From positions 24,012-88,011 of the forward strand of contig JAUCBJ010004884.1 in assembly GCA_032718475.1 (NCBI GenBank): a DNA stretch of 64,000 nt. The letters run 5' to 3'. Shown here in pieces: positions 11,706 through 41,724 of this stretch. The notes beneath the pieces are model-generated. The model made no database searches and was not told the origin of the DNA. It saw only the letters and a list, made by a program, of their open reading frames with translations. The stretch comes from Nemertoderma westbladi (Eukaryota; Animalia; Xenacoelomorpha). The translations under genes were made by a program, and so were the position numbers. Within the stretch, counting starts at the first letter, position 1, and every line of letters begins with the position of its first letter.

Positions 11706-11749
11706 GCGGTACCCTGCCGTCCTGGGAGTCAGGATAAATATATGTAAAG

Positions 11750-12829
11750 ACGGCACTCTGCCGCCTTGGGGCTTAAGTTATAATTATATAAAGGCAGCAC
11801 TCTGCCGCCTTGGGGCTTAAGTTATAATTATATAAAGGCAGCACTCTGCCGCCATGGAGTTTAAGTTATAATTATATAAAGGCAGCACTCTGCCGCCTTG
11901 GGGCTTAAGTTATAATTATATAAAGGCAGCACTCTGCCGCCTTGGGGCTTAAGTTATAATTATATAAAGGCAGCACTCTGCCGCCTTGGGGCTTAAGTTA
12001 TAATTATATAAAGGCAGCACTCTGCCGCCTTGGGGCTTAAGTTATAATTATATAAAGGCAGCACTCTGCCGCCTTGGGGCTTAAGTTATAATTATATAAA
12101 GGCAGCACTCTGCCGCCTTGGGGCTTAAGTTATAATTATATAAAGGCAGCACTCTGCCTCCTTGGGGCTTAAGTTATAATTATATAAAGGCAGCACTCTG
12201 CCGCCTTGGGGCTTAAGTTATAATTATATAAAGGCAGCACTCTGCCGCCTTGGGGCTTAAGTTATAATTATATAAAGGCAGCACTCTGCCGCCTTGGGGC
12301 TTAAGTTATAATTATATAAAGGCAGCACTCTGCCGCCTTGGGGCTTAAGTTATAATTATATAAAGGCAGCACTCTGCCGCCTTGGGGCTTAAGTTATAAT
12401 TATATAAAGGCAGCACTCTGCCGCCTTGGGGCTTAAGTTATAATTATATAAAGGCAGCACTCTGCCGCCTTGGGGCTTAAGTTATAATTATATAAAGGCA
12501 GCACTCTGCCACCTTGGGGCTTAAGTTATAATTATATAAAGGCAGCACTCTGCCGCCTTGGGGCTTAAGTTATAATTATATAAAGGCAGCACTCTGCCGC
12601 CTTGGGGCTTAAGTTATAATTATATAAAGGCAGCACTCTGCCGCCTTGGGGCTTAAGTTATAATTATATAAAGGCAGCACTCTGCCGCCTTGGGGCTTAA
12701 GTTATAATTATATAAAGGCAGCACTCTGCCGCCTTGGGGCTTAAGTTATAATTATATAAAGGCAGCACTCTGCCGCCTTGGGGCTTAAGTTATAATTATA
12801 TAAAGGCAGCACTCTGCCGCCTTGGGGCT
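11750..12829. repeat. 44-bp tandem array, left part (about 24 copies)
   Basis: Unit GGCAGCACTCTGCCGCCTTGGGGCTTAAGTTATAATTATATAAA; split by element A. Confidence 0.97.
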
Positions 12830-13065
12830 TGTCATAAATTATACTTAGGCCATAGCTAATATCCAATATAAGATACAAGTATATTAGCTTGCCAATATTG
12901 TAAACTGTTGAAAGAAGTTGAAACATATGTTAATATTGGAGGTTTGCCGGCAGTATTGTAAAGTAAATATATATAGGTTATTCAATTTAGATAAAGATTA
13001 TTATTAAAGTTTATTAGAAGTTTGTAGCTATCATTTTCCTTTCAATTTATCCACAATTCACTATA
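12830..13065 (+). repeat. 5' LTR of element A (TG...TA)
   Basis: Direct repeat of 36301-36536. Confidence 0.95.
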
Positions 13066-13253: not shown

Positions 13254-15237
13254 ATGAACGAACCGCAACAGAAGACATCCAAAGAGACTCAAGCAACGAA
13301 AACGCCCTCAAACCAAGGGAGAGCAACTCTGATCAGTTCACGAAGTGGAGTACGTTCAGCAGCAACAAAACTAATGAAATCAATCGAAGATATTAGCACC
13401 TACGATGATCACAACAAAAACAGTAGACTGGCGATGTTGTTGGACTACAAAGATCGACTTAACTCATTAAACGAAAAGGTATGGTCTACCATGTCTGAAA
13501 CTGAACAGGACATTGACTCAGAGGTGTGTATAGAGTATGAGTTTAAATTAACAGATATTATTACTGGTTTTAGGTTATCATTTAAGACTTCAGAACGTGA
13601 TAGTAAAGTAGTATTGCCGGCAACCCCAAGTAACGATTTTGTCAGTACATCATACTCTAGTGCTGCTAATGCGTATGCAACCAGTTCACTAATTGCTAGG
13701 GATGTTTTGCCTAAACTAAGTCATGAAACTTTTGACGGTAATCCATTGCAATTTGTCACATGGCGTGATTCATTTATTAGCTCAGTTGAAGATTCTGGTC
13801 TACCAGATATTTTAAAATTGCGACATTTGCTACAATCATTAAAAGGTAGAGCCAAGGAACTTTTTAAAAACTTCCCTATTTCCGATGCAAACTATAAAAT
13901 AGCCTTGGATACATTACAACAGGAATATGGCCAAAAATATCGTATTATTCAGAGTCATATTGATGCTTTAAAGGGCATTTTTCATACTCACGGGAACACA
14001 TCCTAATTGCGTGCAGTATACAATACATGTACTACCACTATGCGTGCATTAAAAACATTAGATGTTCAACCAATTGAATACCAACGAATCATTATTCCTG
14101 AAGTATTAAAAACGTTAGATAATGACTTATCTAAACGTTTCTTACGAAAGAAAAACAATAACATTGATTCTATTGATTGGCTCATGGAAAATATTCACGC
14201 AGAACTAGCTACTATAGAAACACTAAATGAAATAAAATACGGCATTCAAATAAATCACAGCCAAGTTCAACAAAAATCAAGCTCATATGAACCACCTGGA
14301 TTGGCACCTTCAGCAGCGGCACTGGCTGTAAATGTCACAAAGCAACAACAAAACACTCACCAAAGACAATATTATTCTAGTACACAAAGGCCATCAAATT
14401 TCACAAATAAGGGTAAAGAAGTATCAAGGGGTAACACAACAACACCTAAATGCGTTTTTTGTGACCAACAACACTTTTCATCAAATTGTAATTTAATTCC
14501 CGAAGTTTCAAAACGAAAAGAATTTTTGAAGGACAAAAGGCGCTGCTTTAATTGCTTAAATGAAGGTCATAATATTCGTTATTGTTCACGACAAAAACCG
14601 TGTTATAAGTGTCATTACATGGGGCATCATACAGCTATTTGTACATGGAAAGATAAGACATATAATAGAAGTCAACAAGGCCCAGGAAATAATACAACAA
14701 CGGGTACGGCAGCTCAAAGTAACCTAGTAGGAGTAGTCCCTTCTTACAGTGACAATGACAATTATATATTTTTACAAACCGCGAAAGTCAAATGTGCCCT
14801 CGGTGTGGAGACTTCAATAAATACACTTTTCGATCAAGGTGCTACGTTAACATTCATTAGCAGACAGTTTGTCTTATCCCGAAGATAATGACTTTAATGT
14901 TGAGTTACTCATAGGAGCAGACCAATATTGGAAGTTCGTTTCTGGTACAATCATTCGAGCGACTAACTCTGACCTTGTAGCTGTTGATAGTGGCGTAGGT
15001 TGGTTACTGTCGGGTAGTATTTACAACAAAGTACACGCTTATTCCAATCACAAAGTTACAAATTTATGTACACCAGTTACATTAACAAATATAAGCTGCA
15101 ACAATCTTCAACAGAAAAACGATGATGACATGTTGTATAAATTATTCGAAACCTACTGCGATATAGAAAGTACAGGGATACAACCAGAAGATACAGAAGA
15201 AATGTTCAAGCATATATTCACATATGAACAAGGAAGG
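13254..15237 (+). pseudogene. Element A gag-protease region; in-frame stop at 14004-14006 and a deletion/frameshift near 14870
   Basis: LPKL..FDGNPLQFVTWRDSF (DUF1759-like); three BEL-type Cys/His knuckles (CVFC..H..C, CFNC...GH....C, CYKC...HH..IC); protease LFDQGA and LLIGAD. Confidence 0.9.
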
Positions 15238-15364
15238 TATAGAATTATATTCCCTAAATGCCGTGGATTTTCAAAATTTTATTTTTATTCGAATTAACTT
15301 TGTAAAGATTGCTTTGAGTTCTCATTCGTATTTGTTCTATCATTTGTACGCCTATTGGTCAAGT

Positions 15365-15451
15365 GGTTCAGTAGCTCAGTCGGTAGAGCGTTGGAAATTA
15401 TATGTGTAGTAGGTATTGAGTTCGAATCCTAGTAAGTGCGAATTAATTTTT
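15365..15451 (+). promoter_or_regulatory. tRNA-like Pol III internal promoter inside the LTR of element B (second copy at ~30045-30131)
   Basis: A box/D-arm TAGCTCAGTCGGTAGAGC; B box GAGTTCGAATCC at 15418-15429; T-run terminator at ~15447; acceptor and anticodon stems do not form. Confidence 0.7.
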
Positions 15452-15517
15452 GTGCAGAATTTCATCTCATTTAAATTGACCGCTACAAATTAAATTGCAT
15501 TCGTTTGTACCTAGATT

Positions 15518-15680
15518 AACCAATGAGACTGCAGTTATTAGATTGTATCCAATGTCGTGCAAGTTATACATTAGCTGGACCAATGGTTATCTTTAAAAAC
15601 CCAATATAATTATAGAATGTTCTCGATTGATTGCAGCACAAATTTGCTATATAAAGGTGCGATTTGTTCATTAGTTATCT
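15518..15680 (+). promoter_or_regulatory. Putative Pol II promoter of element B LTR: four spaced CCAAT boxes plus a TATA box
   Basis: CCAAT at about 15520, 15549, 15580 and 15601; CTATATAAAGG at ~15647; Inr-like TCATTAGTT at ~15668. Confidence 0.55.
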
Positions 15681-17961
15681 CATTGCTCTAACTCGTTGCA
15701 ATTCATTCTATTGAGTTATCTGATTTTGTTTATTCTGTCATTAGTTCTCAGATTACATTTTGTATTATTATCTGCAATAAATTCAGAAATACCGCTATCT
15801 GCTTTTCTTTTACCATGATTCACTACGGTGAACCCAGCTAAGGGACAGGATGGCCAGCTAGAGATCGGGCCGCAGCAATGAACGGGAACATCACGGGAAT
15901 GTAGGCAAGAGACAACCCGCAATACCATCTTGAGTTATTCGCCCATCGCCTGAAAGGTTAGACAGCGTTTGACGCCTTGCTACCTAAGTATAAGACCAAA
16001 AGATCAAAAGGTAGAAGTAGTGACACGCTGTGAGCCTAAAATTACATCTTAGGGACTGTACTGTCTTGATTCAGGAAAAAACCACAGTAGACCTTCACAT
16101 TCCTATGGGGGGGGAGAGAGAGAGCGCAGGCAGATACTAGTACGCAGATAGGACGTAGGCACACCGGTACGAAGCATACAAATTGGTAGGGTGCAGCAAA
16201 CTGTACGCCTAACTCTTGCTAAGTACAGGTGTGTGTGCGACTATTTGTAGTACGACAGTGTCCATTGCATTAGAACTTGTAGGCTAGGGGGGTTGCTGTG
16301 TTTTCACCTGAATTGGGATTGTACCGTTCAGGCGGTAGGGCAGTTTACAGCTAGGCGCAAATAAATTGAGGCTATTAGGGATACTAACATCTACCGTGTC
16401 CCCGCCAACGCCCTAATAGGAAGTTACCCGGACTACCTGGGTGACTAAAATTCTAGATAGGAGCCAGGATAGCTATTAGTAACTGTACGCCTACAGTAGT
16501 AAACTAACACATCTCTTCTTAGTATCAGGGACCTGGTACCTAAAATTGCCGAATTCTGGGCGTAGCATTAACCTTATGCCTGAATTTGAGTCCTGGAAAT
16601 ACGCAAGAGGGGAAGGAACCTTATCATTCGTGAGTATTGGACCTACAAGTTGAAAAATTAGAATATTCGTAAAATGCACACCGTACCCAGTAATTATATA
16701 TGTGAAGGAGCAAAACTGTTTTTGACCGTTCAGAATTAACACACGCGCGTTAGAAATTTATTTACACCTCAAAATATATAAAATTAACTTTTGTCCGTAC
16801 TGTGCTTTGCCCGCTAGTTAGACATCTCCAAATCTCTGCCTGTACCTAGCTAGCGTCTCTTCGCCCAAACCATATAAATCACACCGCGGCAAAGTGTACG
16901 AACCCCTTAGTCCGTCAGTGAGTCAGCCTGACTTTAGGATTCGCTGCGCGGGATTTTGTTTTATCGAAGTTTGTCTGCTCGTAGACTGTTTTCTGCCTCA
17001 CCGGTTATAAGAGATCGATACTGCAATATATTCGCTTACTTAGAGTTTACTGTTTTGGTGAGAAGGTCAGATTTATGATTTGATTTACAAACTTTACAGT
17101 AAGATATTGCAGGTATTGTTACTGTCTCTTCGAATAGTAGGAATGTGTTTTACTGAACTACGGTTCGGTAGGACTAAAGTTATTTGAAAATTTTGTATTT
17201 TGAGGTAAAAGTTTGTATTTGATTAGCTAAGTGCTAATTTTTTTTTTTTTTTTGAAATAAAATTTGATTTAAACCGCGTGTAAAATATTTTGGAATTGAA
17301 TACCGGTGTTTAAAAGGGTTTAAATACCATATTGTACCGGTACAAAATTTTTTCGTAAAGTAAAACCTAACTCTTTTGTTTTTTCAGGATTCAGAACTCA
17401 TTTCTAGACTGTAACGGGAGCAAGACCGTGTTTAGCAAGTTTGGGAGATAGATAACCCAACAACTTTGGTTGGGAAAATCGCGTTTCGTCCGCAACGTTA
17501 AAAACGGAAGGGTTCACTTCACGTCCGGTTTGTATCTGGGAATCTGTTTTTCTGGAGAATTATTGGAGTGGGTGAGTTCGAAAAGTTGCATAAATAAGTT
17601 AGGCATTACTGTATTAGTTAAAATTATTGTGGGTTCCACTGTCTCAAGTATTTATGCATTCCGTAAGATTTCTTTGTTCATTGCTGAATTAGTCCGTATT
17701 ATTGTATTTAATTTACCTTTTGATAACGCATATCGTTATCCGATTTATTTGTTATAAAATTGGCCGCTAGGCTAATTTTATTATATACTTATTCCGTGAC
17801 ATTTATTTGCTGTAAAATTGGCCGTTTAGGCTAATTTTATCCATCTGCTATAAAATCGGCCGGTAGGCTAATTTTATATGACTGTAATTAGTACCGTTTA
17901 GATATAAATACGGTAAACTCGATACTTTGACACTCACTTTACTTGACTTACAACTATCGAA

Positions 17962-20900
17962 ATGAGTGACAAACAAGACTATACGAAGAATACACAAACC
18001 GACTATGACTCATGTGACGCGGATAAGTCAGCAGCGGAAGAACAACAGGGGAAGACTCGCGAGCCTACCAAACCTACACCGTGTGCGTCACCAGTACATC
18101 CAGCGGGAGTACCGGATGCCGTAGTACGAGGCGACGGCAGGACCGAGGACTTTCTAACTGTTCCGCAACCTAGATACAGGGAAACGGACATGGTAAGTTC
18201 AGCAGGAAGTCAGGAAAGCGTTGTTAGGAGCGTCGGTGGATACATGGCGCATATAACCAGGAGTATTGGAGAAGGCCAACGCATATTAGACGAGTTGACC
18301 GCTCCGATGTCTCGATTCGAGTTCTACACCCTCCAGGTTAGAGTGCAAACTAGAGTACACAAGTCCGTAGATAACCTAATTGGTCTACAAGATCTAGCTA
18401 GACAGAGACAGGACATGGATACTCAACTTAGAATCCTCGAGAAACTAATGATCGCTAGAGAGAAACTGATTCAGTTTAAGTCGACGATTAGGCAGACACA
18501 ACAGGAACAAGTAGACCAGTTGTTAGGTGAGTCAGTTTCGGACGAATTATTGCAGCCCGAGGAAGAACAGGAACTGTACCGACTGGATGAACAATTGAAA
18601 CATCTGACGGACCACTTACGTATGTGCGGCGAAGACGTCGGCGATTTGGAAACCGTGCCGGAATATACGAGGGAAACTTCACCCGTACGAATCGAATCGG
18701 CACCGGGAATACTGGACCAATCGTTAGTGAGTATTCGCAGCGAAATTGGCGAGATAAGTATAGTGACGTCAGAAATTTCCAGACAGCAACAACAACATGA
18801 TAGACAACAACGGGAAGATGAGGAACAAGCTCAATTGTTGACGGCACAAGCGGCGGTAGAAGAAGAAAAACTACGTGTTGCGAATGTTGCAAGAATCTCT
18901 CATCTGCAAGAACAAGCCGAGTTGGAAGCGGCCGAGATGGAAAGGTTGGAGTTGGACATCGCCCAACAAGCGGCAGCGGCCGAGTTAGCGCAACGAACGG
19001 CAGCAGCAGCGGCTGAGTTAGAGCGACAGAGGTTAGTATCAGAAGCGAGAGCCGAGATGAAAAAACGGCAAATAAAGGCTCAATCAGCTATACGACAAGC
19101 GGAGTTCGAGGCGCAACAACAACAGACGGAACAACGCGAGAAGGAAGTTAAACTTCATTTCGAACTCGGGAAGAAGGCGAGAGAATTAGCCAACGCGAAG
19201 GAAGATCTGGATCTACAAGCCCGTGATCGATCGATGAGATCTCGAGACGGACATGACTTGGACCAGATAGAGGTAAGACATCGCCAAATTCAGGAACGGA
19301 AGAAGGAAGGAAGCGTAGGAGCACCCGGACGGGAACGACAATTAGTAAAGGACTTGTGTCAACGATTCCCACAGGTAACTCATATGTTTGCACCGGTTAC
19401 GACTAAGGAACCTGTTTCGATTGCTGGTAGTAGTAATATTTCTCCTATCCATGGTGCGACGGAACACAGGTTTGTTATTCCGGACAAGTTTACACCGCCA
19501 AGAGCAACGTCGTCGCCTATTCCGAAAGTCAAGGTAAGCAACCCGCCGATTACAGATCGTAGTAGTTTGTTGACTGGACCTGCACTACTGACGACTAAAC
19601 AGGTGAGTCCACCGTCGACACCTAAACCCGTTACACACTACGCTTACCCAATGACGTTTCGACCTGCAAGGCAAGTCGATTCAGCTGTTGCTCGACCACC
19701 GGTTCAGTTTACATCGCAATCTACGACTTCGAGGAAGACTTGTGAGCCTACCGAACAACGGAGAACAGTGGATACGCGACCGGTTCAGTTTACATCGCAA
19801 TCTACGACTTCGAGGAAGACTTGTGAGCCTACCGAACAATGGAGAACAGTGGATACGCGACCGGTTCAGTTTACATCGCAATCTACGACTTCGAGGAAGA
19901 CTTGTGAGCCTACCGAACAACGGAGAACAGTGGACGATATTCCGAAACGAAACGTGAGAATTCGTACGACGCAACGGACGCGAGCACGTCGACCACCATA
20001 TCCAGATGATAGTAGTACTTCAAGCGAATCGGATTACCCGAAACGCGAGGTATTTAGAACAGGGGCGGCCGATGAATATAAACGCGAGCGTTCAGACAAC
20101 TCCTTTGTAGACAATCCTCCACAGAATACACCAACACAGAAGGCGTTACAACCAACGGACGCAATCAGTACACAACAGTTCGCCGACATCCTGCGACCAG
20201 TTGTTAACAAGTTGGCTCAGATCGAGGAACGTCTGGAGGAAGGTTACACCGACAGTTCGAGAAATTCCGAATTCGAACACAATAGACACCCGAATGAACC
20301 ACAAAGACCGGTACCTTCAAAACATACATCGTATCAGGGAAAAGCGCCAAGAAGGGAGAACATCAACCAGGTTACCAACCAAGGACGCGAAACTCTGAAC
20401 GTTGCCGAGGAGATAGCGAAATTCGCAGCCAGGCAAGGATTGCCGGTACAACAACCACCGAAGTTTTCCGGTAGTTCAAAACACTGGCACACATTCGTAG
20501 ACTATATCGAATCTCAGATCGCCGTGTGCGCCTTTACATCACGGGAGAAGTTTAATTACCTGCTTCAAACGTTGTCAGGAGAACCTAAACGTTTGGCAGA
20601 GACCTTCGTTGGTGTACCGGACGCCTTCGAACTAGCGTACGATCGTTTAACTTCGATATACGGAGGTACAGTCAGTATGGCCAGGTCAGTAATAGAGGAA
20701 CTCTGTAAGGGAGGGGCTATTACTAAACCCGTCGACTTATTAAAACTTGCTGACGAGATAAGGAACGCTATCACTACTTTAAGATCCATTGGACAACTTG
20801 ACTACGGGAATACCCCTACAGTCCTATTAAAGATCATAGGACGACTCCACCATCGACTTCGTCGGGAGTGGAGAAAGATCGAATACCAGCGAGAAGAGCG

Positions 20901-23900
20901 GGGTGGATTCTTAAAACTGGAGGACGTGTACCTTTTAATATCCAGGGAGGCAGTAGTAGAAACTCGATCCAACTACACTGACCAGCACATCGTGGCAGAA
21001 GGAATCACATTGCCATCCTCCAACCGACAAAAACCCCAGACAACATCTACCAAGACGGCCACTTACGCCACACCAACGGAATCACGACAATTCTCGGACG
21101 GTAGTAGGGTATCTGCGCCCATTGGGACGAAACAGACGAGACAGCAACTTGGTACCGACTTCAGTGGCTGCCAATACTGCGAGCATTTAGGCAAGCGGTA
21201 TATCGGTCACAAGTTGCGAAGTTGTCGACAGTTTCGCGAGTTGAACTCGGAAGAACGACGGCTGCAAATACGGCCATTGGACTCTTGTTGGCGGTGTACG
21301 CGACACGGACACGTCCGTAAAGATTGCCCAAATACCGACACTTGTCCATCCTGTGGACGCAACCACGACGGTCTGCTCCACACGGACAGCCACACGCCGA
21401 CAAAACGCTTCGCCAGGGAACACCCGGAAGCAGCAGCGAGATGTGATGCGGCCTACAGAAAACGAGAATCGAAAACGACTCCAACCTTCGTGACCCATAT
21501 TGAGGATTGCTTCTCAGAACAATCCGGATCGTCGGACGAAGAGTCAGAAGACGACGACGTATATTCGGATGGAGATGAACAGCCATCGATCGCGCTTCTG
21601 ACTACTGACCAACTGAAGGGATTCAGTGTAATTCCGATTAAGATTACTGGCACAAAGGGGAGCAAGAGAATCTACGCGATTCTAGATTCAGCCTCATCTC
21701 ATAGCTACGTGGATGAAAAGATAGCTGACGTCGTGACGGATCTCAGACAAGGTAAGCGCGTCAGTTATACCGTAAGTAGTATGCACGGACAGCGTGCAAT
21801 ACCAGTGACACGAGTTAAGTTGGACTTAGACTCTCTTCTTCCAAAATCGCAACACAGCGAGAGGGAGAGGTCTTTGTTACCCTTCAAGGATCTGACTTTT
21901 GCGGCCACCAAAGACTTTAGTAACCTACTAGGTCCGGTCCCAGAACAATCCTTGGAGGACCGTAAGTATTTCAGACACCTTGGTGTACCTGAATGTCCTG
22001 TCAATTATAGATCGGTAGCAATGCTGATCGGGACGGACCAATTCAACCTACATCAGGTGTGGGAAACCAGACCATCGGCAGTCGTAGCGGGAAACGCATA
22101 CGCCTGCAGAACGCCGATAGGGTGGTATACTCGAGCGCCTGTGCGCACACTAGACGTAAGTGACGAGGAAGAAGATGTACAAAGTACATGTAGTTTACTA
22201 ACTACAAATTCAATCCATTCCTTTTCACACGATGTGGACCATACTACCTTACATACAAGACATGACAGACGTGTAACTAGTATGATAAGTCACAAGGAGC
22301 AGCTAATTCACCAGGTGCGGAAATCGATACAACATTGGCCTCCGTTATACGACAACAAGTCTAACACCATCCCTAAGGACGCCGAAATCAAGAAACCAAA
22401 AGAGGGGAAGGCAAAGAAAAAGACGACGGCGGCGAAACTCAAGAAAAAACCGAAGGCGAAATGGAAAGATATAACTTCAAAGGTCAAGAGAGGAAGACTT
22501 GCGAGCCTTTCTACACCAGACATATCGCCAGACGGTCAACCAGACACGTTACCAGACGGTCAACGAGACACGTTACTAGACGGTCAACCAGATGTTTTGC
22601 CAGACATATCACAAAATGTTCTACCAGACACTAGTGACATACTGACAAACAGTAAAGCCGCAGTTTCTCTATTGGAGCGGCCTTCTATTGACAAACAACC
22701 AGATACGTTACCAGACGTATCGCCAGACACATTACTAGACAGTCGACTAGACATTTTGTCAGAAACATCACAAAATGTTCTACCGGACATTAGTAATGTA
22801 TTGACTAACAGTAAAGCCGCAGTTTCCCTATTGGAGCGGCCTTGTATTGACAAACTACCAAATTTGACACACTTGAGCAACCATAAGCACGGTGAAACCT
22901 CATGTATTGCAGATGTGGGTAGTACCTACGCTAATGTAAATACAGGTGTTACTTTGCGCTCAAGAGACATACCGAACTTGCAACCTATGGTGAAACCTGG
23001 GATTAATGTCGGCAGAAAAATAAGTTTACCGAAACCTGCTGACCCCATAGAGTTCAAACCACCATTAACGATCGACTTACAAGGTACTGACAATCAAGGT
23101 AAGAAGACGAAGAAGGACAAATTACTTGTAGACCCGGACGGATCAACAGTCAACAAGGGAATACTTACCGGCGGACCCGTGGGCCCTTCTAGTAATTCAA
23201 AACCTTCCAAAATCTCCATTGAATTACCTGATGACGTCACAAATACTCACGTCGACCGGATTGTAAACTTAACAGATTCTTGGACGAACGCTTGCCGAAA
23301 ATTAGCGTGGATTGTACGTTTTGTACAATACGTTAAAGGCAAACGTGACTTTACACGTCGACTTACATTGGCTGAGATTGACAGGTGTGAAATTAAATTA
23401 ATTCGCCATTACCAACTGCGATATTTCGCGCGCGAATTCACATCCATAAATCAAGGTCAACCTATTAAGTCGTCACCAATACTGAGTTGGAGTCCGATAA
23501 TTTATAATGGCTTACTTTGTCATAAATCTCGGCTTCAAAACATTGACTTTAACACAAACTTTAGGTACCCAATAATAATACCGCAACACCACGAACTACA
23601 ACGTGCAATGATACTGGACGCACATTTACATCTGAAACACGCTGGAAGACACCACTGTCTTTCCTACTTACGTACAAGATTTGTATTGATTAGACCTAGT
23701 AAAGCGTTAAGTTCAGTGACACGTACGTGTATTATTTGTAAAAAGGTACATTCTAGAATAGGTACCCAGGAAATGAGTGAACTTCCACAAGCACGACTTC
23801 AAGCATTCAGACCACCTTTTACAGAGACTGGAATTGATTGCTTTGGTCCCATACATACGAAACGTGGACGTATACTAGTAAAACGCTGGGGACTGATTTT

Positions 23901-24759
23901 CACATGTATGTCCAGTAGGGCAGTTCATATTGAACGTGTGATGGATCTTTCCACCAACGCGTTTATACTAGCATTGCGGCGATTTATCGCTAGACGCGGA
24001 CTAGTGAAATGCTTGTACTCAGACCAAGGGACAAACTTTGTTGGTGCTCGGAATGAGATTGCTAGAGCCCTTAAGAAATTAGATCATGATCAAATCTCGA
24101 ACGAACTACAACCTCATAAGATTGTTTGGAAGTTTAATCCTCCAGATAGTCCATGGAGAGGCGGAGTCTGGGAGAGATTGATTAGATCTATCAAGACAGC
24201 CATGGCAAAGGTCATTCCAGTAAACCACATACTGACAGACGACCAACTGACAACATTGTTTGTTGAAATCGAGGCAATACTAAATACTAGACCAATAGTA
24301 TTAGTACCCGATGACAAACAATCTCAATTTGCTTTAACACCGGCACACCTGCTAATGCAGGCACCGACCACTTTGACGCCGATTTCTATTCCAATAGAAA
24401 GCGATAGCTACGGTAGAAAAGCGTGGAAAATCACGCAACTACTGGCTAACAAATTCTGGGAAATATGGCAAAACCATTATTTGTCCTCTATTTCTGCCAG
24501 AACAACATGGTACAATAATACCCGCGCATTAAAGCCGGGAGATCACGTGCTGTTAGCAGAAGTGATTCTAAAAAGACGCTTCTGGATAACAGGTGTAATT
24601 TTAGCCACACATCCATCTATGGATGGAGTGACAAGAACTGTGACGGTACGGACAATTGACGGTCGTACAGTAGACAGACCGACTCAACGTCTCGTACTTC
24701 TTGAAGAGACTCGTAACGAGTCTGGAGACTACAAATCTCCACCTAATACTAGTAAATAA
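17962..24759 (+). CDS. BEL/Pao-type Gag-protease-integrase polyprotein lacking RT and RNase H (2265 aa, uninterrupted)
   Basis: Coiled coil; PPKFSG..HWHTF (DUF1759-like); three Cys/His knuckles; protease AILDSAS..LIGTD; a low-complexity/repeat linker with no YxDD; then HHCC (HLHLKH..CIIC), catalytic IDCFGP / SDQGTNF / GGVWERL and the BEL integrase C-terminal domain. Confidence 0.92.
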   Translation: MSDKQDYTKNTQTDYDSCDADKSAAEEQQGKTREPTKPTPCASPVHPAGVPDAVVRGDGRTEDFLTVPQPRYRETDMVSSAGSQESVVRSVGGYMAHITRSIGEGQRILDELTAPMSRFEFYTLQVRVQTRVHKSVDNLIGLQDLARQRQDMDTQLRILEKLMIAREKLIQFKSTIRQTQQEQVDQLLGESVSDELLQPEEEQELYRLDEQLKHLTDHLRMCGEDVGDLETVPEYTRETSPVRIESAPGILDQSLVSIRSEIGEISIVTSEISRQQQQHDRQQREDEEQAQLLTAQAAVEEEKLRVANVARISHLQEQAELEAAEMERLELDIAQQAAAAELAQRTAAAAAELERQRLVSEARAEMKKRQIKAQSAIRQAEFEAQQQQTEQREKEVKLHFELGKKARELANAKEDLDLQARDRSMRSRDGHDLDQIEVRHRQIQERKKEGSVGAPGRERQLVKDLCQRFPQVTHMFAPVTTKEPVSIAGSSNISPIHGATEHRFVIPDKFTPPRATSSPIPKVKVSNPPITDRSSLLTGPALLTTKQVSPPSTPKPVTHYAYPMTFRPARQVDSAVARPPVQFTSQSTTSRKTCEPTEQRRTVDTRPVQFTSQSTTSRKTCEPTEQWRTVDTRPVQFTSQSTTSRKTCEPTEQRRTVDDIPKRNVRIRTTQRTRARRPPYPDDSSTSSESDYPKREVFRTGAADEYKRERSDNSFVDNPPQNTPTQKALQPTDAISTQQFADILRPVVNKLAQIEERLEEGYTDSSRNSEFEHNRHPNEPQRPVPSKHTSYQGKAPRRENINQVTNQGRETLNVAEEIAKFAARQGLPVQQPPKFSGSSKHWHTFVDYIESQIAVCAFTSREKFNYLLQTLSGEPKRLAETFVGVPDAFELAYDRLTSIYGGTVSMARSVIEELCKGGAITKPVDLLKLADEIRNAITTLRSIGQLDYGNTPTVLLKIIGRLHHRLRREWRKIEYQREERGGFLKLEDVYLLISREAVVETRSNYTDQHIVAEGITLPSSNRQKPQTTSTKTATYATPTESRQFSDGSRVSAPIGTKQTRQQLGTDFSGCQYCEHLGKRYIGHKLRSCRQFRELNSEERRLQIRPLDSCWRCTRHGHVRKDCPNTDTCPSCGRNHDGLLHTDSHTPTKRFAREHPEAAARCDAAYRKRESKTTPTFVTHIEDCFSEQSGSSDEESEDDDVYSDGDEQPSIALLTTDQLKGFSVIPIKITGTKGSKRIYAILDSASSHSYVDEKIADVVTDLRQGKRVSYTVSSMHGQRAIPVTRVKLDLDSLLPKSQHSERERSLLPFKDLTFAATKDFSNLLGPVPEQSLEDRKYFRHLGVPECPVNYRSVAMLIGTDQFNLHQVWETRPSAVVAGNAYACRTPIGWYTRAPVRTLDVSDEEEDVQSTCSLLTTNSIHSFSHDVDHTTLHTRHDRRVTSMISHKEQLIHQVRKSIQHWPPLYDNKSNTIPKDAEIKKPKEGKAKKKTTAAKLKKKPKAKWKDITSKVKRGRLASLSTPDISPDGQPDTLPDGQRDTLLDGQPDVLPDISQNVLPDTSDILTNSKAAVSLLERPSIDKQPDTLPDVSPDTLLDSRLDILSETSQNVLPDISNVLTNSKAAVSLLERPCIDKLPNLTHLSNHKHGETSCIADVGSTYANVNTGVTLRSRDIPNLQPMVKPGINVGRKISLPKPADPIEFKPPLTIDLQGTDNQGKKTKKDKLLVDPDGSTVNKGILTGGPVGPSSNSKPSKISIELPDDVTNTHVDRIVNLTDSWTNACRKLAWIVRFVQYVKGKRDFTRRLTLAEIDRCEIKLIRHYQLRYFAREFTSINQGQPIKSSPILSWSPIIYNGLLCHKSRLQNIDFNTNFRYPIIIPQHHELQRAMILDAHLHLKHAGRHHCLSYLRTRFVLIRPSKALSSVTRTCIICKKVHSRIGTQEMSELPQARLQAFRPPFTETGIDCFGPIHTKRGRILVKRWGLIFTCMSSRAVHIERVMDLSTNAFILALRRFIARRGLVKCLYSDQGTNFVGARNEIARALKKLDHDQISNELQPHKIVWKFNPPDSPWRGGVWERLIRSIKTAMAKVIPVNHILTDDQLTTLFVEIEAILNTRPIVLVPDDKQSQFALTPAHLLMQAPTTLTPISIPIESDSYGRKAWKITQLLANKFWEIWQNHYLSSISARTTWYNNTRALKPGDHVLLAEVILKRRFWITGVILATHPSMDGVTRTVTVRTIDGRTVDRPTQRLVLLEETRNESGDYKSPPNTSK
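19696..19936 (+). repeat. 81-bp (27-aa) in-frame tandem repeat, 3 copies, in gag
   Basis: RPVQFTSQSTTSRKTCEPTEQRRTVDT repeated three times. Confidence 0.95.
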
Positions 24760-25418
24760 TTAGGAGTTTACAAACAGATTTCCACTTACCTGTACACTGT
24801 AGTAAGGACAGCGGTAGAATTCCATTGTCTTTATATGTCAACATTGAGGGTAGTACCCTTATGTGTCACATAGGAGCGGGATTTGTAGGTATAAGAAATG
24901 GAATTCTACTTGGAACTCACAATATTGAGACATTTTCGAAATTTTAGACAATCCATTTGGATTTGAAAAATTTTTAAAAATTTTCTCCAGTGAATATATT
25001 TCAGGGTACAGTCGGGTGGAACTTAAAATTAGAGAAACAAGAGAGGAAGACTTGCGAGCCTTTCTTAAAATTTTAATTAAATTTTACACGGTCTTGTTTC
25101 AATAAGTTACGTCAAAATAGACTCCCCTATATTTATTACTAATTCTTGACTGCTTATTTTCTGATAATAGTTTGGGATCAAAAAGTGAGTATTTTAGACT
25201 CACAGCCAGTTTAGCCCAAATTCGTTTTTATTTCGGCAAAAATTTTAGATAAGAAGCAGCGTGTCATTAAAGAAACCCTAGATCTTAGGCTATGGGTAGG
25301 AGGTTAGAGCGTTGTCAAGCCCAAAGGGCAGACGAAACTCTCATGTCTCCTCACAACTAACTACAAACTCTGTTGTATTCCCTCTAGTAGTAATGATTAT
25401 GTAACTACACCCCTAATT

Positions 25419-28253
25419 ATGGAGAAAGGGATACAAGGAGAGCCGAGATGGGGATATGATATCCAGGAGGAGGCAGCAGCGCCATTCGAAAGATTTGGAG
25501 CCAAGGACTATACTATATTTGGTATAAAGGAATTATCGGAAAGTACAGCGAAACTCGCGAGAACTAAATATGACTCGAACGTATTAAAGAGAAGGCAAAA
25601 TGCATTAAACGAAAGAATCGAAAGTTTGCGCCAAACCTTCAACGAACTTTACCCGTACGACGCTTTGTGTGATACGGGAGACATTAGCGAAGACCCCGAT
25701 ACCGAAATTAGTCGTTTGTATCATACCATGCAATACCTAAAGGCGCACGAACCTATGCCCGCGGTAAGAGATGAATTCGATGGAATGCATCTTTACAGAC
25801 GAACTCGAGGGGATGATAGAGAAACCAAGGAAGCATTTTCAGTGTATAAACTTTATTATCAATGCGGTTCTTGTATGCGCGAACAACGAAATGCGATTCC
25901 GATGCGTTTGAATAAGGAAAATCCCGAACCGATATTGGCGAGGTGTTCGAATCATCAACAACTACGCTACCAGGAAGGAGGGTATCCTTTATCGAATCCA
26001 TATCATTCATTTGCTATGACCGGACCAAAAGCGGGAGAAACTGTCATTTACCCACCTAAGGTTGTTGAACCCGATGTATTTGAACTTACGCTGGACGAGG
26101 CAAATCAGTCAACCCGCGAAAAGAAAGAAGCTCTTAGCCTATACAGAGCCTACAAGGCTTTCGAGAAAGGTGAGATGGAAGAATGGGGCGGAAGACTCGC
26201 GAGCCTACCTTGCCATTGGACGTCACACGATCAAACTCCAGCTAAGGAGATGACACCGGAAGTTTTCGAGAGCATAAACTTTGCTCAAAACGTTATTCAG
26301 AGACTACAGATTGCATCCCCGGAGAGGACCAGAGAAATGCAACCGTATAGTACTTCAACTACGAAACCATTGAGTACGACACTCAACTTTCCTATTAGTA
26401 TACCAGTCCGACAGGATACGACGTACGAAATACCCATCGTGGATCATCCAGAAATCATTTCGAACTTGGAGTTTCTTCCTGCAGTTGTTTTCAGCGATAT
26501 GAGTAAGATATATGATTTACGTAGACATATTACTCAAAAGGTCGTGTACAACGTTCCACCTCATATTCAAGATTTCAAGGAACTGGATAGAGCTGGTGCC
26601 GATATAGCTCCGAGTAATCTGAAAGGATATTTAACCAAGACGATTCGTTTATGGATTGGAACCGGAACCTTCGAGTCGGATACAGATATTGCCGCAGATT
26701 GGCGAGGTAAGGTTATTCGTTTCGAAGATGATAAGGACATAGAGAAGATTTGGCAACCTTCGGAAGAATTGTTGGATGAATGGAATAGGACGTTTAGATC
26801 GTTTCAGGAAAACGGTTACATGTTTTACGATAACGAGGGCGGCAGTCATCAGCAGAGTTTGACTTCTAAGACTATACAGATTAGAGCGGCGGACGGAGTC
26901 CTGCACGTTTTCAGTAGACAGAGGAGCGACAAACGAATGCCGATACCTCCAGCGAATACAAAGCGACACCATCTTATCACCGATATAGTAAAGAAGATGG
27001 ACCAAGCTTGTAATATCGACGCTAGAATGCTACCGAAGATGGTAAGAAACATGATTTTAGATAAAACTGTTGTAAAGATTGGATCAGGAGTAAGGGAGGA
27101 TTTAATTAGCGACTTCGCCGGCATGACGGACAGCGATGACCGACTACCGACACCTTACGTCGACACTCGACCTCTTATTTTGTGGTCTATAGAACAGGGA
27201 TATTTTCGTGAGTATAATACTCAGAAGACTGGAACTGGATACATTTCCTACCTGTTATTCAATTGGGATTATAAGGAAAATAAGAGAAACAAGTATATTG
27301 AAACTTATGGAGAAGGTGATACTCCAGATATGAGTGAGTTTGAATCACAGCTTAAATGGAGAGGATGCGTGTATTGGGCTATTACGTCACCTCCAAGAGC
27401 GGTCTTACAATATTATTTAGCAATAGAGTCGTCAGTGAATGTTTGCCTAATCGCCGACATTGTGTCTCGGACTCTCAAAAGACATCCACTTTGTCTCGGA
27501 GATGATCATACGTTCTACATGGAAGGGAGAATTCGTACCGACGTGTTTAGACGATTCCTTGAACCCTTCTACAACTCCGACGCTCAGTGTAATGCCTTTA
27601 CTCGAGCAGGATTTAGTATATTTCGAGATGTGTATCTTCGCTGTGCGGGATCTCTTATCGAAAGACCATCTATGTTTACATTGTTACCCTATGAAGGAGA
27701 ACGTATCGTGGAGATTACGGAAGAATCACGGCAGACGCGCGCGCCTATCGGTCACCTCGGTGATGATTTCGAAGTAACTACTACGATCGCTGACGATCCT
27801 TTAGAGGAACTTCTTGAGATAGAAAGGAACCTCCCGAAGAAATCTCAGACGGAGATTCGACAACTTGAAGCAACAGATGCTATAGTTTGTATACAACCTT
27901 CAGAAACCTACCAACCCATAGACCCAGATGATTACGATTATAGTGTGGGAGGAAGCGCTCGACCGATTGGAGATCTTATATACGAACGAGTGTGGTACCC
28001 TGCCAATACGATGTGTAGTAAATGTGGCGTCGCTGGACATCATATGACAAAGTGCAGTGGAAAGCACATTACTACGACTCAGCTAATCTGTGGATGGTGT
28101 GGGGATCAAGGGTCTCATACCTTTTATACTTGCTGGAGATTTATGGCTCAATGTACTTACTGCAATATAAAAGGACATCGAGCATCTGAATGCCAACTAA
28201 GAGACATACCTTATGAACACGAATCTGTAAAACTCGTGAGGAAATTATTTTGA
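25419..28253 (+). CDS. Element B ORF2: DEDD (DnaQ-like, WRN/EXD/mut-7-type) 3'-5' exonuclease-like domain plus three CCHC zinc knuckles
   Basis: ExoI-like YMFYDNEG...TIQIRA; ExoII-like LPKMVRNMILDKTVVKIGSGVREDL; ExoIII-like YYLAIE; knuckles CSKCGVAGHHMTKC, CGWCGDQGSHTFYTC and CTYCNIKGHRASEC. Confidence 0.7.
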   Translation: MEKGIQGEPRWGYDIQEEAAAPFERFGAKDYTIFGIKELSESTAKLARTKYDSNVLKRRQNALNERIESLRQTFNELYPYDALCDTGDISEDPDTEISRLYHTMQYLKAHEPMPAVRDEFDGMHLYRRTRGDDRETKEAFSVYKLYYQCGSCMREQRNAIPMRLNKENPEPILARCSNHQQLRYQEGGYPLSNPYHSFAMTGPKAGETVIYPPKVVEPDVFELTLDEANQSTREKKEALSLYRAYKAFEKGEMEEWGGRLASLPCHWTSHDQTPAKEMTPEVFESINFAQNVIQRLQIASPERTREMQPYSTSTTKPLSTTLNFPISIPVRQDTTYEIPIVDHPEIISNLEFLPAVVFSDMSKIYDLRRHITQKVVYNVPPHIQDFKELDRAGADIAPSNLKGYLTKTIRLWIGTGTFESDTDIAADWRGKVIRFEDDKDIEKIWQPSEELLDEWNRTFRSFQENGYMFYDNEGGSHQQSLTSKTIQIRAADGVLHVFSRQRSDKRMPIPPANTKRHHLITDIVKKMDQACNIDARMLPKMVRNMILDKTVVKIGSGVREDLISDFAGMTDSDDRLPTPYVDTRPLILWSIEQGYFREYNTQKTGTGYISYLLFNWDYKENKRNKYIETYGEGDTPDMSEFESQLKWRGCVYWAITSPPRAVLQYYLAIESSVNVCLIADIVSRTLKRHPLCLGDDHTFYMEGRIRTDVFRRFLEPFYNSDAQCNAFTRAGFSIFRDVYLRCAGSLIERPSMFTLLPYEGERIVEITEESRQTRAPIGHLGDDFEVTTTIADDPLEELLEIERNLPKKSQTEIRQLEATDAIVCIQPSETYQPIDPDDYDYSVGGSARPIGDLIYERVWYPANTMCSKCGVAGHHMTKCSGKHITTTQLICGWCGDQGSHTFYTCWRFMAQCTYCNIKGHRASECQLRDIPYEHESVKLVRKLF

Positions 28254-29068
28254 TGAGTGGGAAGATTTAGCCGACGAACATGTATCGGCACAAAGAAGAC
28301 GGTTTCCGATGAGAGCGCATCTCGGATTTTGGGCGGCAAATCCTCAAACGATGATGTCGGAAGGATATATCTCCGCTATGCCCCAATATGACGAACTTAT
28401 CGAGGTTGTCGATATATTGCCCCACGACAGCGGATTCCGAGTGGTGCGCGAGTATCTACTACAGATTCACCCGGATAACAAAAACACGTGGAATTTTCAG
28501 AAAGTCGTTAACCGCATTACGTATGGTGAATTATAAACGTATACGAGCGAGCGTATTCGAGGAAGAGGAGGTCCTAGAGGCGACAAATATACCAGCCACT
28601 CCGGTTGCGCCGTCTGCACGTCACCCTCGGGAGGACGGACAGGGTAAGATCATACGGGTCCAGAAAGTGGGCCAACAATTAAAGAAAATTATTAATATAG
28701 AAGAACGCAAGGGAGTTGAGCCGACCATTCGAGTTACTCGAGATACGGTATCGCTTCCAAGAGAACCAGTAGGAGGATCGGGACATACACCAGCTGATCA
28801 ACAGGGGGCGCAAGCTACTCTTGGGTCTGCGTCGTCCGCTTCTCGCGCGTTCCCAGACGTTCTACCAACTGTAGTGACAACTGATCGGTCACGAGGAATC
28901 GGTCGAGGTTTTGGGATGCCAAATAGACGAATTTGCGAAGAAATAGTCGCACCGTCTCTCAACGTCCCAAGTAAACCAGTGACTCGCCCCATTAGTCCCA
29001 TATCGCGAGCAAAGTCACCTGTGCGCAGTTTTCGAGGACGCGGCAGGGCTCGATCCACTAAGCGATAA
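28254..29068 (+). CDS. Probable frameshifted C-terminal continuation of ORF2 (or a separate ORF3) with an Arg/Ser/Pro-rich basic tail
   Basis: Removing one T from TTATTTTGATGAG joins KLF to DEWEDLADEH...MRAHLGFW (to 28536); an overlapping frame then runs to RGRGRARSTKR* at 29068. Confidence 0.5.
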
Positions 29069-29917
29069 AAGGGAGGGCAAGGGTGGACGGAAGACTCGTG
29101 AGCCTTTCTTATGATTTTGTGATTTATTTGAATTTATATTTATATTCGTGTTTATTCCGAACTTATGCAATTTGTATTGTTCCGAATTTATGAAATTTAG
29201 AAATAAGAACTCATATTTAGTAAAACTTATATTTGGTAAGACTTATATTTGTAAGAATTTATATTTTATATTTGTAATTATTCCGAACTTATGCAATTTA
29301 TATTATTCCGAACTTATGCAATTTATATTGTTCCGAATATTATGCAATTTATATCTTATAAGTAGTATTTGTATTTACAGTGAAATAGAAAGTAAGAGTA
29401 GATGGAAGACTCGTGGGCCTTTCTTATAGTTTCATTTGTAAAGTGTTATATTTTGTATTTAGAAAGTTTTATAGTCAGAAAGTTTTGTGCTTAGAAAGAC
29501 TCATATTTGTAATTATTCCAAACTTATGCAATCTACATTTAGGTACGAAAGTATTTGTAATTATTTTGTATTTATGCAATATTTGAGATGCAATAGTAGA
29601 TGGAAGACTCGCGAGCCTTTCTTATTGTTTTCATTTATTTGTATTTGTAATTGTTTGAATTTATGCAATATTGAGATGCAATAGATTTATATTGGTGAAT
29701 TTAGTTTAGATTTATATTGTACTTACTTAGTAAAGCCTTAAATACGTAAAGTTTGAATTTGTAATTATTTTGTATCGAATCATTACGTAGAAAGGAAGTA
29801 TTATTTGAAATTTAATTTGTAAATATGTAAGTAAGCCCTAAGTATTCTATAGTTTGATTGATTATTGGTGAAAACCGTATATTTTATGCACGATAATATC
29901 CTGTTTTCATGGAGCGG

Positions 29918-31815
29918 TATAGAATTATATTCCCTAAATGCCGTGGATTTTCAAAATTTTATTTTTATTCGAATTAACTTTGTAAAGATTGCTTTGAGTT
30001 CTCATTCGTATTTGTTCTATCATTTGTACGCCTATTGGTCAAGTGGTTCAGTAGCTCAGTCGGTAGAGCGTTGGAAATTATATGTGTAGTAGGTGTTGAG
30101 TTCGAATCCTAGTAAGTGCGAATTATTTTTTGTGCAGAATTTCAACTCATTTAAATTGACCGCTACAAATTAAATTGCATTCGTTTGTACCTAGATTAAC
30201 CAATGAGACTGCAGTTATTAGATTGTATCCAATGTCGTGCAAGTTATACATTAGCTGGACCAATGGTTATCTTTAAAAACCCAATATAATTATAGAATGT
30301 TCTCGATTGATTGCAGCACAAATTTGCTATATAAAGGTGCGATTTGTTCATTAGTTATCTCATTGCTCTAACTCGTTGCAATTCATTCTATTGAGTTATC
30401 TGATTTTGTTTATTCTGTCATTAGTTCTCAGATTACATTTTGTATTATTATCTGCAATAAATTCAGAAATACCGCTATCTGCTTTTCTTTTACCATGATT
30501 CACTACGGTGAACCCAGCTAAGGGACAGGATGGCCAGCTAGAGATCGGGCCGCAGCAATGAACGGGAACATCACGGGAATGTAGGCAAGAGACAACCCGC
30601 AATACCATCTTGAGTTATTCGCCCATCGCCTGAAAGGTTAGACAGCGTTCGACGCCTTGCTACCTAAGTATAAGACCAAAAGATCAAAAGGTAGAAGTAG
30701 TGACACGCTGTGAGCCTAAAATTACATCTTAGGGACTGTACTGTCTTGATTCAGGAAAAAACCACAGTAGACCTTCACATTCCTACGGGGGGGAGAGAGA
30801 GAGCGCAGGCAGATACTAGTACGCAGATAGGACGTAGGCACACCGGTACGAAGCATACAAATTGGTAGGGTGCAGCAAACTGTACGCCTAACTCTTGCTA
30901 AGTACAGGTGTGTGTGCGACTATTTGTAGTACGACAGTGTCCATTGCATTAGAACTTGTAGGCTAGGGGGGTTGCTGTGTTTTCACCTGAATTGGGATTG
31001 TACCGTTCAGGCGGTAGGGCAGTTTACAGCTAGGCGCAAATAAATTGAGGCTATTAGGGATACTAACATCTACCGTGTCCCCGCCAACGCCCTAATAGGA
31101 AGTTACCCGGACTACCTGGGTGACTAAAATTCTAGATAGGAGCCAGGATAGCTATTAGTAACTGTACGCCTACAGTAGTAAACTAACACATCTCTTCTTA
31201 GTATCAGGGACCTGGTACCTAAAATTGCCGAATTCTGGGCGTAGCATTAACCTTATGCCTGAATTTGAGTCCTGGAAATACGCAAGAGGGGAAGGAACCT
31301 TATCATTCGTGAGTATTGGAACTACAAGTTGCAAAATTAGAATATTCATAAAATGCACACCGTACCCAGTAATTATATATGTGAAGGAGCAAAACTGTTT
31401 TTGACCGTTCAGAATTAACACACGCGCGTTAGAAATTTATTTACACCTCAAAATATATAAAATTAACTTTTGTCCGTACTGTGCTTTGCCCGCTAGTTAG
31501 ACATCTCCAAATCTCTGCCTGTACCTAGCTAGCGTCTCTTCGCCCAAACCATATAAATCACACCGCGGCAAACTGTACGAGCCCCTTAGTCCGTCAGTGA
31601 GTCAGCCTGATTTTAGGATTCGCTGCGCGGGATTTTGTTTTATCGAAGTTTGTCTGCTCGTAGACTGTTTTCTGCCTCACTGGTTATAAGAGATCGATAC
31701 TGCAATATATTCGCTTACTTAGAGTTTACTGTTTTGGTGAGAAGGTCGGATTTATGATTTGATTTACAAACTTTACAGTAAGATATTGCAGGTATTGTTA
31801 CGGTCTCTTCGAATA
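29918..31815 (+). repeat. 3' LTR of element B (1898 bp)
   Basis: Direct repeat of 15238-17136; preceded only by a short purine-rich ATGGAGCGG. Confidence 0.95.
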
Positions 31816-31820
31816 GAAGG

Positions 31821-36536: not shown

Positions 36537-36962
36537 GGGCTTAAGTTATAATTATATAAAGGCAGCACTCTGCCGCCTTGGGGCTTAAGTTATAATTATA
36601 TAAAGGCAGCACTCTGCCGCCTTGGGGCTTAAGTTATAATTATATAAAGGCAGCACTCTGCCGCCTTGGGGCTTAAGTTATAATTATATAAAGGCAGCAC
36701 TCTGCCGCCTTGGGGCTTAAGTTATAATTATATAAAGGCAGCACTCTGCCGCCTTGGGGCTTAAGTTATAATTATATAAAGGCAGCACTCTGCCGACTTG
36801 GGGCTTAAGTTATAATTGTATAAAGGCAGCACTCTGCCGCCATGGAGTTTAAGTTATAATTATTCAAAAGGCGGTACCTTTATGAGCATGGTCCTTAATT
36901 ATTTCAAATGAAAAAGGCGGCAGTGTGCTGCCTTTTCTAATGGTTGGTACGCAAAGGGTTAA
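36537..36962. repeat. 44-bp tandem array, right part (about 7 copies), ending in an inverted unit and a piggyBac-like AGGG-TTAA end
   Basis: Same unit as 11750-12829; inverted AAAGGCGGCAGTGTGCTGCCTTT at ~36913-36935; CGCAAAGGGTTAA at 36950-36962. Confidence 0.85.
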
Positions 36963-41700: not shown

Positions 41701-41724
41701 TTATTATTTAATTATTTTATTTAA

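Follow-up and report, generated by a model that had tools for sequence, protein, structure and literature searches.

A recent BEL/Pao insertion within a second BEL/Pao element

The 64,000-nucleotide (nt) stretch of Nemertoderma westbladi DNA analysed here (the window; contig JAUCBJ010004884.1) carries, at positions 15238 to 31815, a long terminal repeat (LTR) retroelement of the BEL/Pao superfamily whose main open reading frame (ORF) is without reverse transcriptase (RT) and ribonuclease H (RNase H, RH). An earlier annotation made from the letters alone, hereafter the sequence-only reading, had taken the element for a stable lineage that borrows RT in trans. Here we describe the element, its relation to the family from which it comes, and the manner in which that family may be primed. 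Its principal features are as follows.

15233-15237, + strand: left target site duplication (TSD), 5 nt, GAAGG, same as 31816-31820
15238-31815, + strand: full element, 16.6 kb
15238-17136, + strand: 5' LTR, 1899 nt, TA..TA ends
17962-24759, + strand: ORF1, 2265 amino acids (aa), unbroken; Gag, protease, tether, integrase
22316-22317, + strand: RT-RNase H gap, an in-frame junction at codon 1452/1453, with ~540 aa missing compared with relatives
22318-23271, + strand: expanded RH-integrase tether, covered by family contigs and carrying 12/24-nt and 159-nt repeats
25419-28253, + strand: ORF2, 944 aa, unbroken; N-terminus without known relative, DEDDy-like exonuclease, three C-terminal zinc knuckles (~866-926)
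29918-31815, + strand: 3' LTR, 1898 nt
31816-31820, + strand: right TSD, equal to the left copy

The two LTRs differ at 15 of 1899 columns (99.2% identity) and the element is flanked by a perfect 5-nt duplication, bearing out the young insertion of the sequence-only reading; the insertion of this copy is recent. Both LTRs also have the non-canonical termini described there, which read TA..TA and are not of the TG..CA type. One caveat concerns the TSD: the target repeats over 10 nt, and a boundary moved by 1 nt also yields a perfect duplication. We prefer 15238 and 31815 as boundaries because they give symmetric ends and let the primer-binding site (PBS) pair. Within the 10-nt target (15233-15242 and 31816-31825), the second half equals the first 5 nt of the LTR, and the first half agrees with the first 5 nt of the PBS at 4 of 5 positions; this likeness to the element's boundaries may reflect chance or target preference. 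Recombination at a 10-nt look-alike target without a TSD was also considered and left aside, as a 5-nt TSD is simpler.

For comparison we used public contigs from four runs (X1-X4) of three samples, here called family contigs. Flank contigs in X1 and X3 depart from the window at 15242-15244 and continue for ~880 nt, the pattern expected of an empty site. The element is nested in another BEL/Pao element, directly ahead of the RT of this host.

The host element (12831-36536) is flanked by a 5-nt TSD and bounded by ~245-nt LTRs; its PBS is of the ordinary TGG type and its polypurine tract (PPT) is G-rich. Its LTRs also end in TA, not CA, and it lies itself within a 44-nt minisatellite array (11741-12830 and 36537-36863).

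ORF1 lacks RT and RNase H at a single junction

ORF1 encodes a DUF1759 domain (residues 835-972), three Cys-His knuckles (1070-1140), a protease (D1242) and an integrase (1877-2247), and its Pfam matches are DUF1759, integrase H2C2 and DUF5641. The integrase carries an HHCC motif and the catalytic residues D1959, D2021 and E2071 in DD49E spacing; the protease motif reads D-S-A, with alanine at the same place in 12 of 91 RT-bearing relatives. The frame is thus open throughout with both enzymatic motifs kept, as had been proposed. Among the 120 best integrase relatives, the integrase is 32-40% identical to BEL/Pao polyproteins, and all 120 contain DUF5641 of the BEL/Pao type; no Ty3/Gypsy chromovirus ancestry was detected. 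The element's paired LTRs with a target duplication, and its order of Gag capsid and nucleocapsid, protease, and integrase last, likewise agree with BEL/Pao membership.

Pfam gave no match to RVT_1 or Peptidase_A17 in ORF1, and the ORF of the host element matched both in the same scan. An RT-RH profile built from 93 natural relatives scored 439.5 bits on the host ORF. On ORF1 it scored 3.2 bits, confined to the pre-RT part (profile columns 7-84, residues 1377-1448), and in six frames of the whole element nothing appeared beyond this match. Because neither Pfam nor the profile finds RT or RNase H, we conclude that the studied copy is truly without both, in agreement with the sequence-only reading.

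That reading had also placed a ~400-aa low-complexity linker where the missing domains should be, and a diverged RT hidden in it was one candidate that we considered. This candidate is ruled out: a Pfam scan of residues ~1387-1773, with E up to 5 allowed, gave no family, and neither these residues nor the six frames yielded an RT with the custom profile. The linker does not replace the missing domains, which are absent at one point. ORF1 is collinear with relatives up to profile column 84 (residue 1448), where the RT match of the host begins. On the other side, a WP pair lies at residue 1459, 6 residues past the junction; in 82 of 93 relatives WP follows 12-14 residues after WxxGP, the motif that ends RNase H. 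The junction therefore coincides with the RT start and RNase H end of natural relatives. The low-complexity stretch sits downstream of the position at which RNase H ends in relatives, and the supposed linker is an expanded RH-integrase tether: 498 residues separate WP from the first integrase Asp motif, compared with ~245 in relatives (~250 aa longer). Family contigs span this tether as they do the rest of the element.

Family contigs carry extra sequence at the junction

The family contigs behave differently at the junction itself. The listing available there comprised 32 of 626 contig pieces and 23 of 53 loose contig ends, and among these, contigs depart from the window at 22317 in every run (seven in X1, five in X2, four in X3 and one in X4). 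Others enter at 22316-22334, again in 4 of 4 runs, with a 2-nt overlap between the contigs that leave on the left and those that enter on the right. The X4 departure (record 25, 519 nt) spans 22183-22317 and continues with 344 nt of other sequence; its depth is the entire X4 depth over 22190-22309. No contig bridging 22316/22317 was found among the pieces listed, and none in X4. These data indicate that a longer parent form exists, contrary to what is expected of an RT-less lineage, and the statement that this is "not a broken copy" is not upheld: the family carries extra sequence exactly where the copy has its gap.

We propose that the extra sequence is RT-RH, because the junction falls at the RT start and RNase H end of relatives; it would amount to ~1.6 kb and bring the full length to ~18.2 kb. 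Its loss would have occurred by template switch or repair at the 2-nt microhomology, before or after the present insertion. Taken jointly, these two steps are, in our judgement, highly probable.

Several observations weigh against this interpretation. Bridging contigs in X1-X3 may exist among the pieces outside the listing, and rare variants are lost from contigs. Residues 1410-1495, used as a query, had no relative among 21 candidates, a weak negative for an RT-bearing protein of the family, and both ORF1 and ORF2 are absent from the protein collection. The identity of the missing segment as RT-RH thus rests on position, since databases did not yield the protein of the family itself. The codon-position counts given below come from the best-supported 40 of 763 rows, a non-random sample.

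The copy as a probable deletion product of an RT-bearing parent

The family is multi-copy: single X3 contigs in the element reach a depth of 7,012-12,362, compared with 72 for a flank contig, figures of depth and not of copy count. Of the 24 ORF1 differences listed, 11 segregate in the family, and 10 of these are third-position changes (p 1.3e-4); the other 13 set this copy apart from nearly all contigs, and 6 of them lie at codon position 3 (p 0.24). Third-position differences also make up 7 of 9 in the tether and 4 of 5 in ORF2. In this small sample, the pattern fits selection on the family, including the tether and ORF2, without a sign of it on the branch of this copy.

Similar losses occur elsewhere. 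Among the best 120 relatives by integrase, 3 have 0% of the RT-RH core and 8 have <80%. Two of the relatives with gaps have breakpoints of their own, P0058 joining profile column 77 to 613 and P0087 joining 44 to 593. Other internal deletion forms exist in the studied family as well, because contig joints in X1, X3 and X4 omit ~2.0-2.1 kb of ORF2 including the exonuclease (25558-27703). Deleted copies of LTR elements are described as routine, and terminal inverted repeats as nearly universal, in PMC3286476 and PMC3601003.

Two other explanations of the RT-less copy were weighed. The first shares the deletion origin and holds that the deleted form has since spread as a satellite subfamily, with its own Gag, protease and integrase and with RT from full-length siblings. 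Consistent with this, the in-frame gap removes RT-RH cleanly and leaves all cis signals in place (primer, PBS, motifs and LTRs), a TSD specific to this copy surrounds its nearly identical LTRs, and the incomplete X1-X3 rows leave room for a minority of bridging contigs. RT-less P0058 also belongs to a cluster of 27 members, 5 of 15 listed being 1486 aa long; these members may, however, represent a single locus across several assemblies. Against a satellite stand the lack of a bridging contig among those listed and in X4, the lack of a third-position excess among copy-specific differences, and the fact that one in three random deletions stays in frame. We therefore regard such a subfamily as unlikely. 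The second explanation, an assembly error or the retrocopy of a spliced Gag-protease-integrase mRNA, is very improbable. In its favour, no listed contig bridges the junction, the left break resembles the start of a splice donor and the family has GT..AG joints elsewhere. Against it, splicing would have removed the donor-like GT, which is still in the window, both other GT..AG intervals are kept in the copy, and the junction lies outside any repeat prone to collapse.

Together, these results make it very probable that the studied copy is a deletion derivative, of a recurring kind, of an RT-bearing family. It would need RT in trans for further movement, and works like a helper-dependent BEL/Pao element; in this respect the non-autonomous character proposed earlier holds, whereas a stable RT-less lineage is not supported, given the contigs that leave at 22317. 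An undescribed RT-less system is not supported as the headline. The best overall explanation, which we consider likely, is a recent BEL/Pao copy with in-frame loss of RT-RH, whose RT-bearing parent would supply reverse transcription, likely by self-priming.

A candidate self-primer in the LTR

The features that bear on transcription and priming, together with a further ORF, are these.

15372-15452, + strand: tRNA-like RNA polymerase III (Pol III) unit in U3, with A box at 15372, B box at 15420 and T run, matched by standard box patterns
15520-15690, + strand: likely Pol II promoter by its motifs, with a TATA box at 15650 and CCAAT boxes, four in number
16085-16106, + strand: putative self-primer region; 16096-16106 is complementary to the PBS and the duplex extends upstream
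17137-17147, + strand: PBS, 11 nt, directly abutting the 5' LTR, without TGG start
28388-29068, + strand: ORF3, 226 aa, Arg/Pro-rich, without a Pfam family
29911-29917, + strand: weak PPT candidate by direct reading, a 7-nt purine-rich stretch abutting the 3' LTR

No TGG occurs within 34 nt after the 5' LTR, in line with the non-tRNA PBS that had been pointed out. The 11 nt that follow the LTR are the exact reverse complement of positions 859-869 of the 3' LTR (30776-30786); against the 5' LTR, one of the pairs is G-U. The element thus shows a PBS complementary to its own LTR, of the Tf1 type, and no 18-nt host-tRNA PBS. Self-priming is indicated because these nucleotides pair with the element's own LTR and not with the end of a tRNA. 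An anchored 11-nt complement arose by chance in 4 of 20000 Markov LTRs, at 13 of 12742 internal anchors and at 45 of 31900 outside anchors, that is, at ~0.1% per anchor (0.10-0.14% at other anchors). The extended primer-PBS duplex has a predicted energy of -27.1 kcal/mol; of 300 null LTRs, 3 did as well or better. When the RNA was folded from a start at 16096 or 16060, 8 of the 11 pairs formed at a probability of at least 0.92, and the remaining three at 0.99/0.98, 0.68, and 0.22-0.27 at ends; 0-3 of 11 end pairs formed in ten control windows. In the proposed mechanism, the genomic RNA would begin or be cut at about 16096-16106, and the 11-mer would anneal to the PBS and prime the minus strand as in Tf1.

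Other results count against self-priming. An RNA from the TATA-driven start (~15680) gives a duplex probability of 0, and a TATA box just upstream of 16096 was not found. Primer and PBS lie 1030 nt apart, and an AATAAA at LTR position 539, upstream of the primer, would need read-through. The 822-nt leader has 5 other anchors with 11 nt of complementarity (5/822, 0.6%).

Some of these further leader-LTR complements, at 17196, 17676, 17714 and 17869 (LTR positions 1528, 636, 766 and 1538), occur above the background rate and possibly reflect a long-range leader structure.

An alternative account takes the PBS-LTR complementarity as chance or a regulatory stem, has a tRNA fragment or another host RNA prime, and makes ORF2 an accessory nuclease or RNA binder that counters small-RNA silencing by the host. 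The additional complements in the leader and the fold from the TATA-driven start speak for a chance match or stem; for a role in silencing, Rodriguez et al. (PMC5408684) do not settle what the DEDDy ORFs of retroelements do, and they mention silencing. On the other hand, the complement starts at precisely the base that follows the LTR, is part of a longer duplex and has the low chance rate given above, and a TGG PBS is lacking, unlike in the neighbouring BEL element. We consider this alternative a serious one with about one-third of the weight, and lean, by a modest degree, toward self-priming from the element's own LTR segment as judged from complementarity and predicted folding.

The Pol III head described in the sequence-only reading is retained in part: A-box and B-box matches with a T run are present. 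ARAGORN found 0 genes for a foldable tRNA or RNA, and Rfam gave 0 matches to RNA families or ribozymes at E up to 1 over 15000-32000.

ORF2 is a predicted DEDDy-like exonuclease with zinc knuckles

The second ORF, described earlier as a DEDD exonuclease with zinc knuckles, proved to be unbroken and to carry the expected residues: D471, E473, D561, Y666 and E670 align with D, E, D, Y and D of P0125. Residues 425-730 gave an ESM Atlas score of 0.93, with 24 of 30 hits in the PF01612 set, and there is a weak DnaQ match (E 0.033). Three weak matches to ORF2 were found among 1.84 billion representatives, of which P0125 alone matches the exonuclease; it has the same exonuclease-knuckle layout (pairwise E 5e-13). 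A two-sequence profile retrieved no further relatives, and none were found in metagenome contigs. For the N-terminus there was no usable Atlas hit, and ORF2 has nothing meaningful in PHROGs and no sequence hit in PDB. Less favourable to the assignment are the fourth acidic residue, which is E and not D, the absence of a Pfam exonuclease match, and two AlphaFold models that were unusable (pLDDT 32 and 28). On the strength of its motifs, ORF2 is predicted to be a DEDDy-like 3'-5' exonuclease with zinc knuckles.

Two joints in run X4 bear on how ORF2 may be expressed.

15957-17388, + strand: GT..AG joint 1 (contig joint from 15954 to 17386), likely intron; its removal would take out the putative primer and PBS
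17572-25388, + strand: GT..AG joint 2 (contig joint from 17570 to 25387), likely intron; skips all of ORF1 and ends 30 nt before the ORF2 ATG

Both agree with textbook donor and acceptor sequences. Combined, they would give an mRNA without primer, PBS and ORF1 that opens 30 nt upstream of the ORF2 ATG. X4 is labelled 'DNA?', so the joints are not proven splices, a point to be set against their reading as introns. We think that transcription from the upstream promoter probably yields such a spliced ORF2 mRNA, which would lack primer and PBS. The exonuclease, held by its knuckles, might then trim RNA 3' ends, possibly including the primer; this step is speculative and we hold it to be doubtful.

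A dispersed palindromic motif

The element also contains a repeated short motif.

18050-29622, + strand: quasi-palindromic 20-nt motif, ten copies, spread over two reading phases and non-coding DNA
18051, 19734, 19815, 19896, 22493, 25046, 26191, 29090, 29405 and 29603, + strand: motif cores, with a degenerate one at 27731

The 16-nt core occurs ten times on the + strand within the element and 0 times in the remaining 47 kb of the window. Because its coding copies differ in reading phase, of which there are two, and others lie in non-coding DNA, the motif acts as nucleic acid. The dispersed hairpins noted earlier exist as copies of an element-specific motif, but as single hairpins they are weak (-0.4 to -3.6 kcal/mol), and the reverse strand is often better. 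Observed changes preserve G-U pairing, and covariation was no higher than in shuffles (50 of 500) when the tandem triplicate was merged to one copy and 8 or 9 of 11 rows were used. Copy-to-copy duplexes average -18.8 kcal/mol, compared with -8.5 for random 20-mers, 2.6% of which reach -18. We tentatively suggest that the motifs serve as RNA dimerisation or packaging signals, a role that has perhaps one chance in three of being correct.

Neighbouring features

A second young LTR element lies at 38394-46167 on the minus strand, with identical 538-nt repeats, TG..CA ends and a 5-nt TSD. It contains two long low-complexity ORFs, which measure 458 aa and 825 aa from stop to stop, the longer one with Cys-His knuckle-like motifs, and ~2 kb of C/T-rich tandem repeats; no further ORF of at least 200 aa is present on its minus strand. 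By its sequence, this element looks like a Gag-only non-autonomous element. Judged by eye, two further stretches have recognisable relatives: an ORF at 58947-59810 looks like the membrane portion at the N-terminus of a sodium/calcium exchanger, and a fragment at 61563-62405 on the minus strand resembles a non-LTR RT.

Comparison with known systems

BEL/Pao elements (Belpaoviridae, Semotivirus) are 4.2-10 kb long with LTRs of 0.2-1.2 kb and an 18-nt tRNA PBS, and their replication is called poorly understood in the ICTV profile (PMC8742986). The studied element shares with them a DUF1759 Gag with three knuckles, a protease, DUF5641, a single polyprotein and a 5-nt TSD. It differs in that the studied copy is without RT and RNase H, is 16.6 kb long, has 1.9-kb LTRs and lacks an 18-nt tRNA PBS, and in its TA..TA ends and extra ORFs that are not env-like. 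The weak PPT candidate is a 7-nt stretch; the tract of Belpaoviridae is ~10 nt. By the ICTV definition, the studied copy is not an autonomous member of this family. The DD(49)E integrase is shared with the BEL/Pao element Sinbad (PMC554778).

A PBS that directly follows the LTR and complements the element's own LTR is shared with Tf1, Tf2, Tj1, Sushi, Tcn1 and TAR (PMC4600332, PMC5341516, PMC6317226). This signature was the ground for proposing self-priming in Tj1 (PMC4600332) and in the plant elements Tcn1 and TAR (PMC6317226). For Tf2, it depends on the start site used whether the resulting RNA can be copied (PMC5341516), and alternative start sites could likewise decide the reverse-transcribability of the RNA here. 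Those elements belong to Ty3/Gypsy or Ty1/Copia; the studied element, in contrast, is BEL/Pao, and its primer and PBS are separated by the long interval noted above.

The bdelloid elements Juno and Vesta and the Terminons also have a post-pol ORF with an RNase D-like DEDDy exonuclease and a D-to-E catalytic change (PMC5408684, PMC6431247). Shared too are a separate spliced expression unit, which is putative here, and a proposed role in 3'-end processing (PMC5408684), which for the bdelloid LTR-element ORFs is proposed and not shown (PMC5408684, PMC6431247, PMC6338049). The bdelloid elements are of another superfamily, and the studied ORF2 joins its exonuclease to three zinc knuckles and to a long N-terminus without known relative; the likeness is one of layout.

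The ENA/Logan BEL/Pao proteins P0058, P0087 and P0048 share with the studied copy an open Gag-(protease)-integrase frame without the RT-RH core. They have independent breakpoints and no expanded tether, and are known as proteins alone; full-length P0058 turns up in more than one assembly.

Nematode Cer7-type BEL/Pao elements appear to have an exonuclease-like domain and a self-encoded tRNA-like primer. The candidate primer here is an 11-nt LTR segment and not a tRNA, and the element has no env.

In the literature searched, a partial coverage of the field, we found no RT-less Gag-protease-integrase BEL/Pao element, no self-priming one and no exonuclease-bearing one, nor any with this size and TA ends. 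The words 'exonuclease' and 'primer' did not occur, by word search, in the BEL/Pao survey PMC3118150, and the passages searched in PMC554778 and PMC9094657 do not address an exonuclease or self-primer in BEL/Pao.

Implications for the BEL/Pao family

The RT-less copy is ordinary in itself: LTR elements commonly lose internal segments, and this gap recurs in the three RT-less integrase relatives. What makes the parent family worth attention is that it likely self-primes, has an exonuclease ORF that is likely spliced, is large and ends in TA. Put together, the candidate steps would describe a BEL/Pao family of ~18 kb without tRNA priming, in which an 11-nt primer from its own LTR acts over a 1-kb loop, a spliced DEDDy-knuckle protein matures this primer, ten palindromes dimerise or package the RNA, and RT-less Gag-protease-integrase satellites ride along, their deletion class recurring across BEL/Pao. 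As a whole, this combined reading is improbable, at roughly one chance in five. If the family does self-prime, this would extend self-priming to a third LTR superfamily, beyond Ty3/Gypsy and Ty1/Copia. It would also give a testable job to the retroelement-captured DEDDy exonucleases, whose role is left open in PMC5408684, by placing a candidate substrate and a candidate enzyme in one element.

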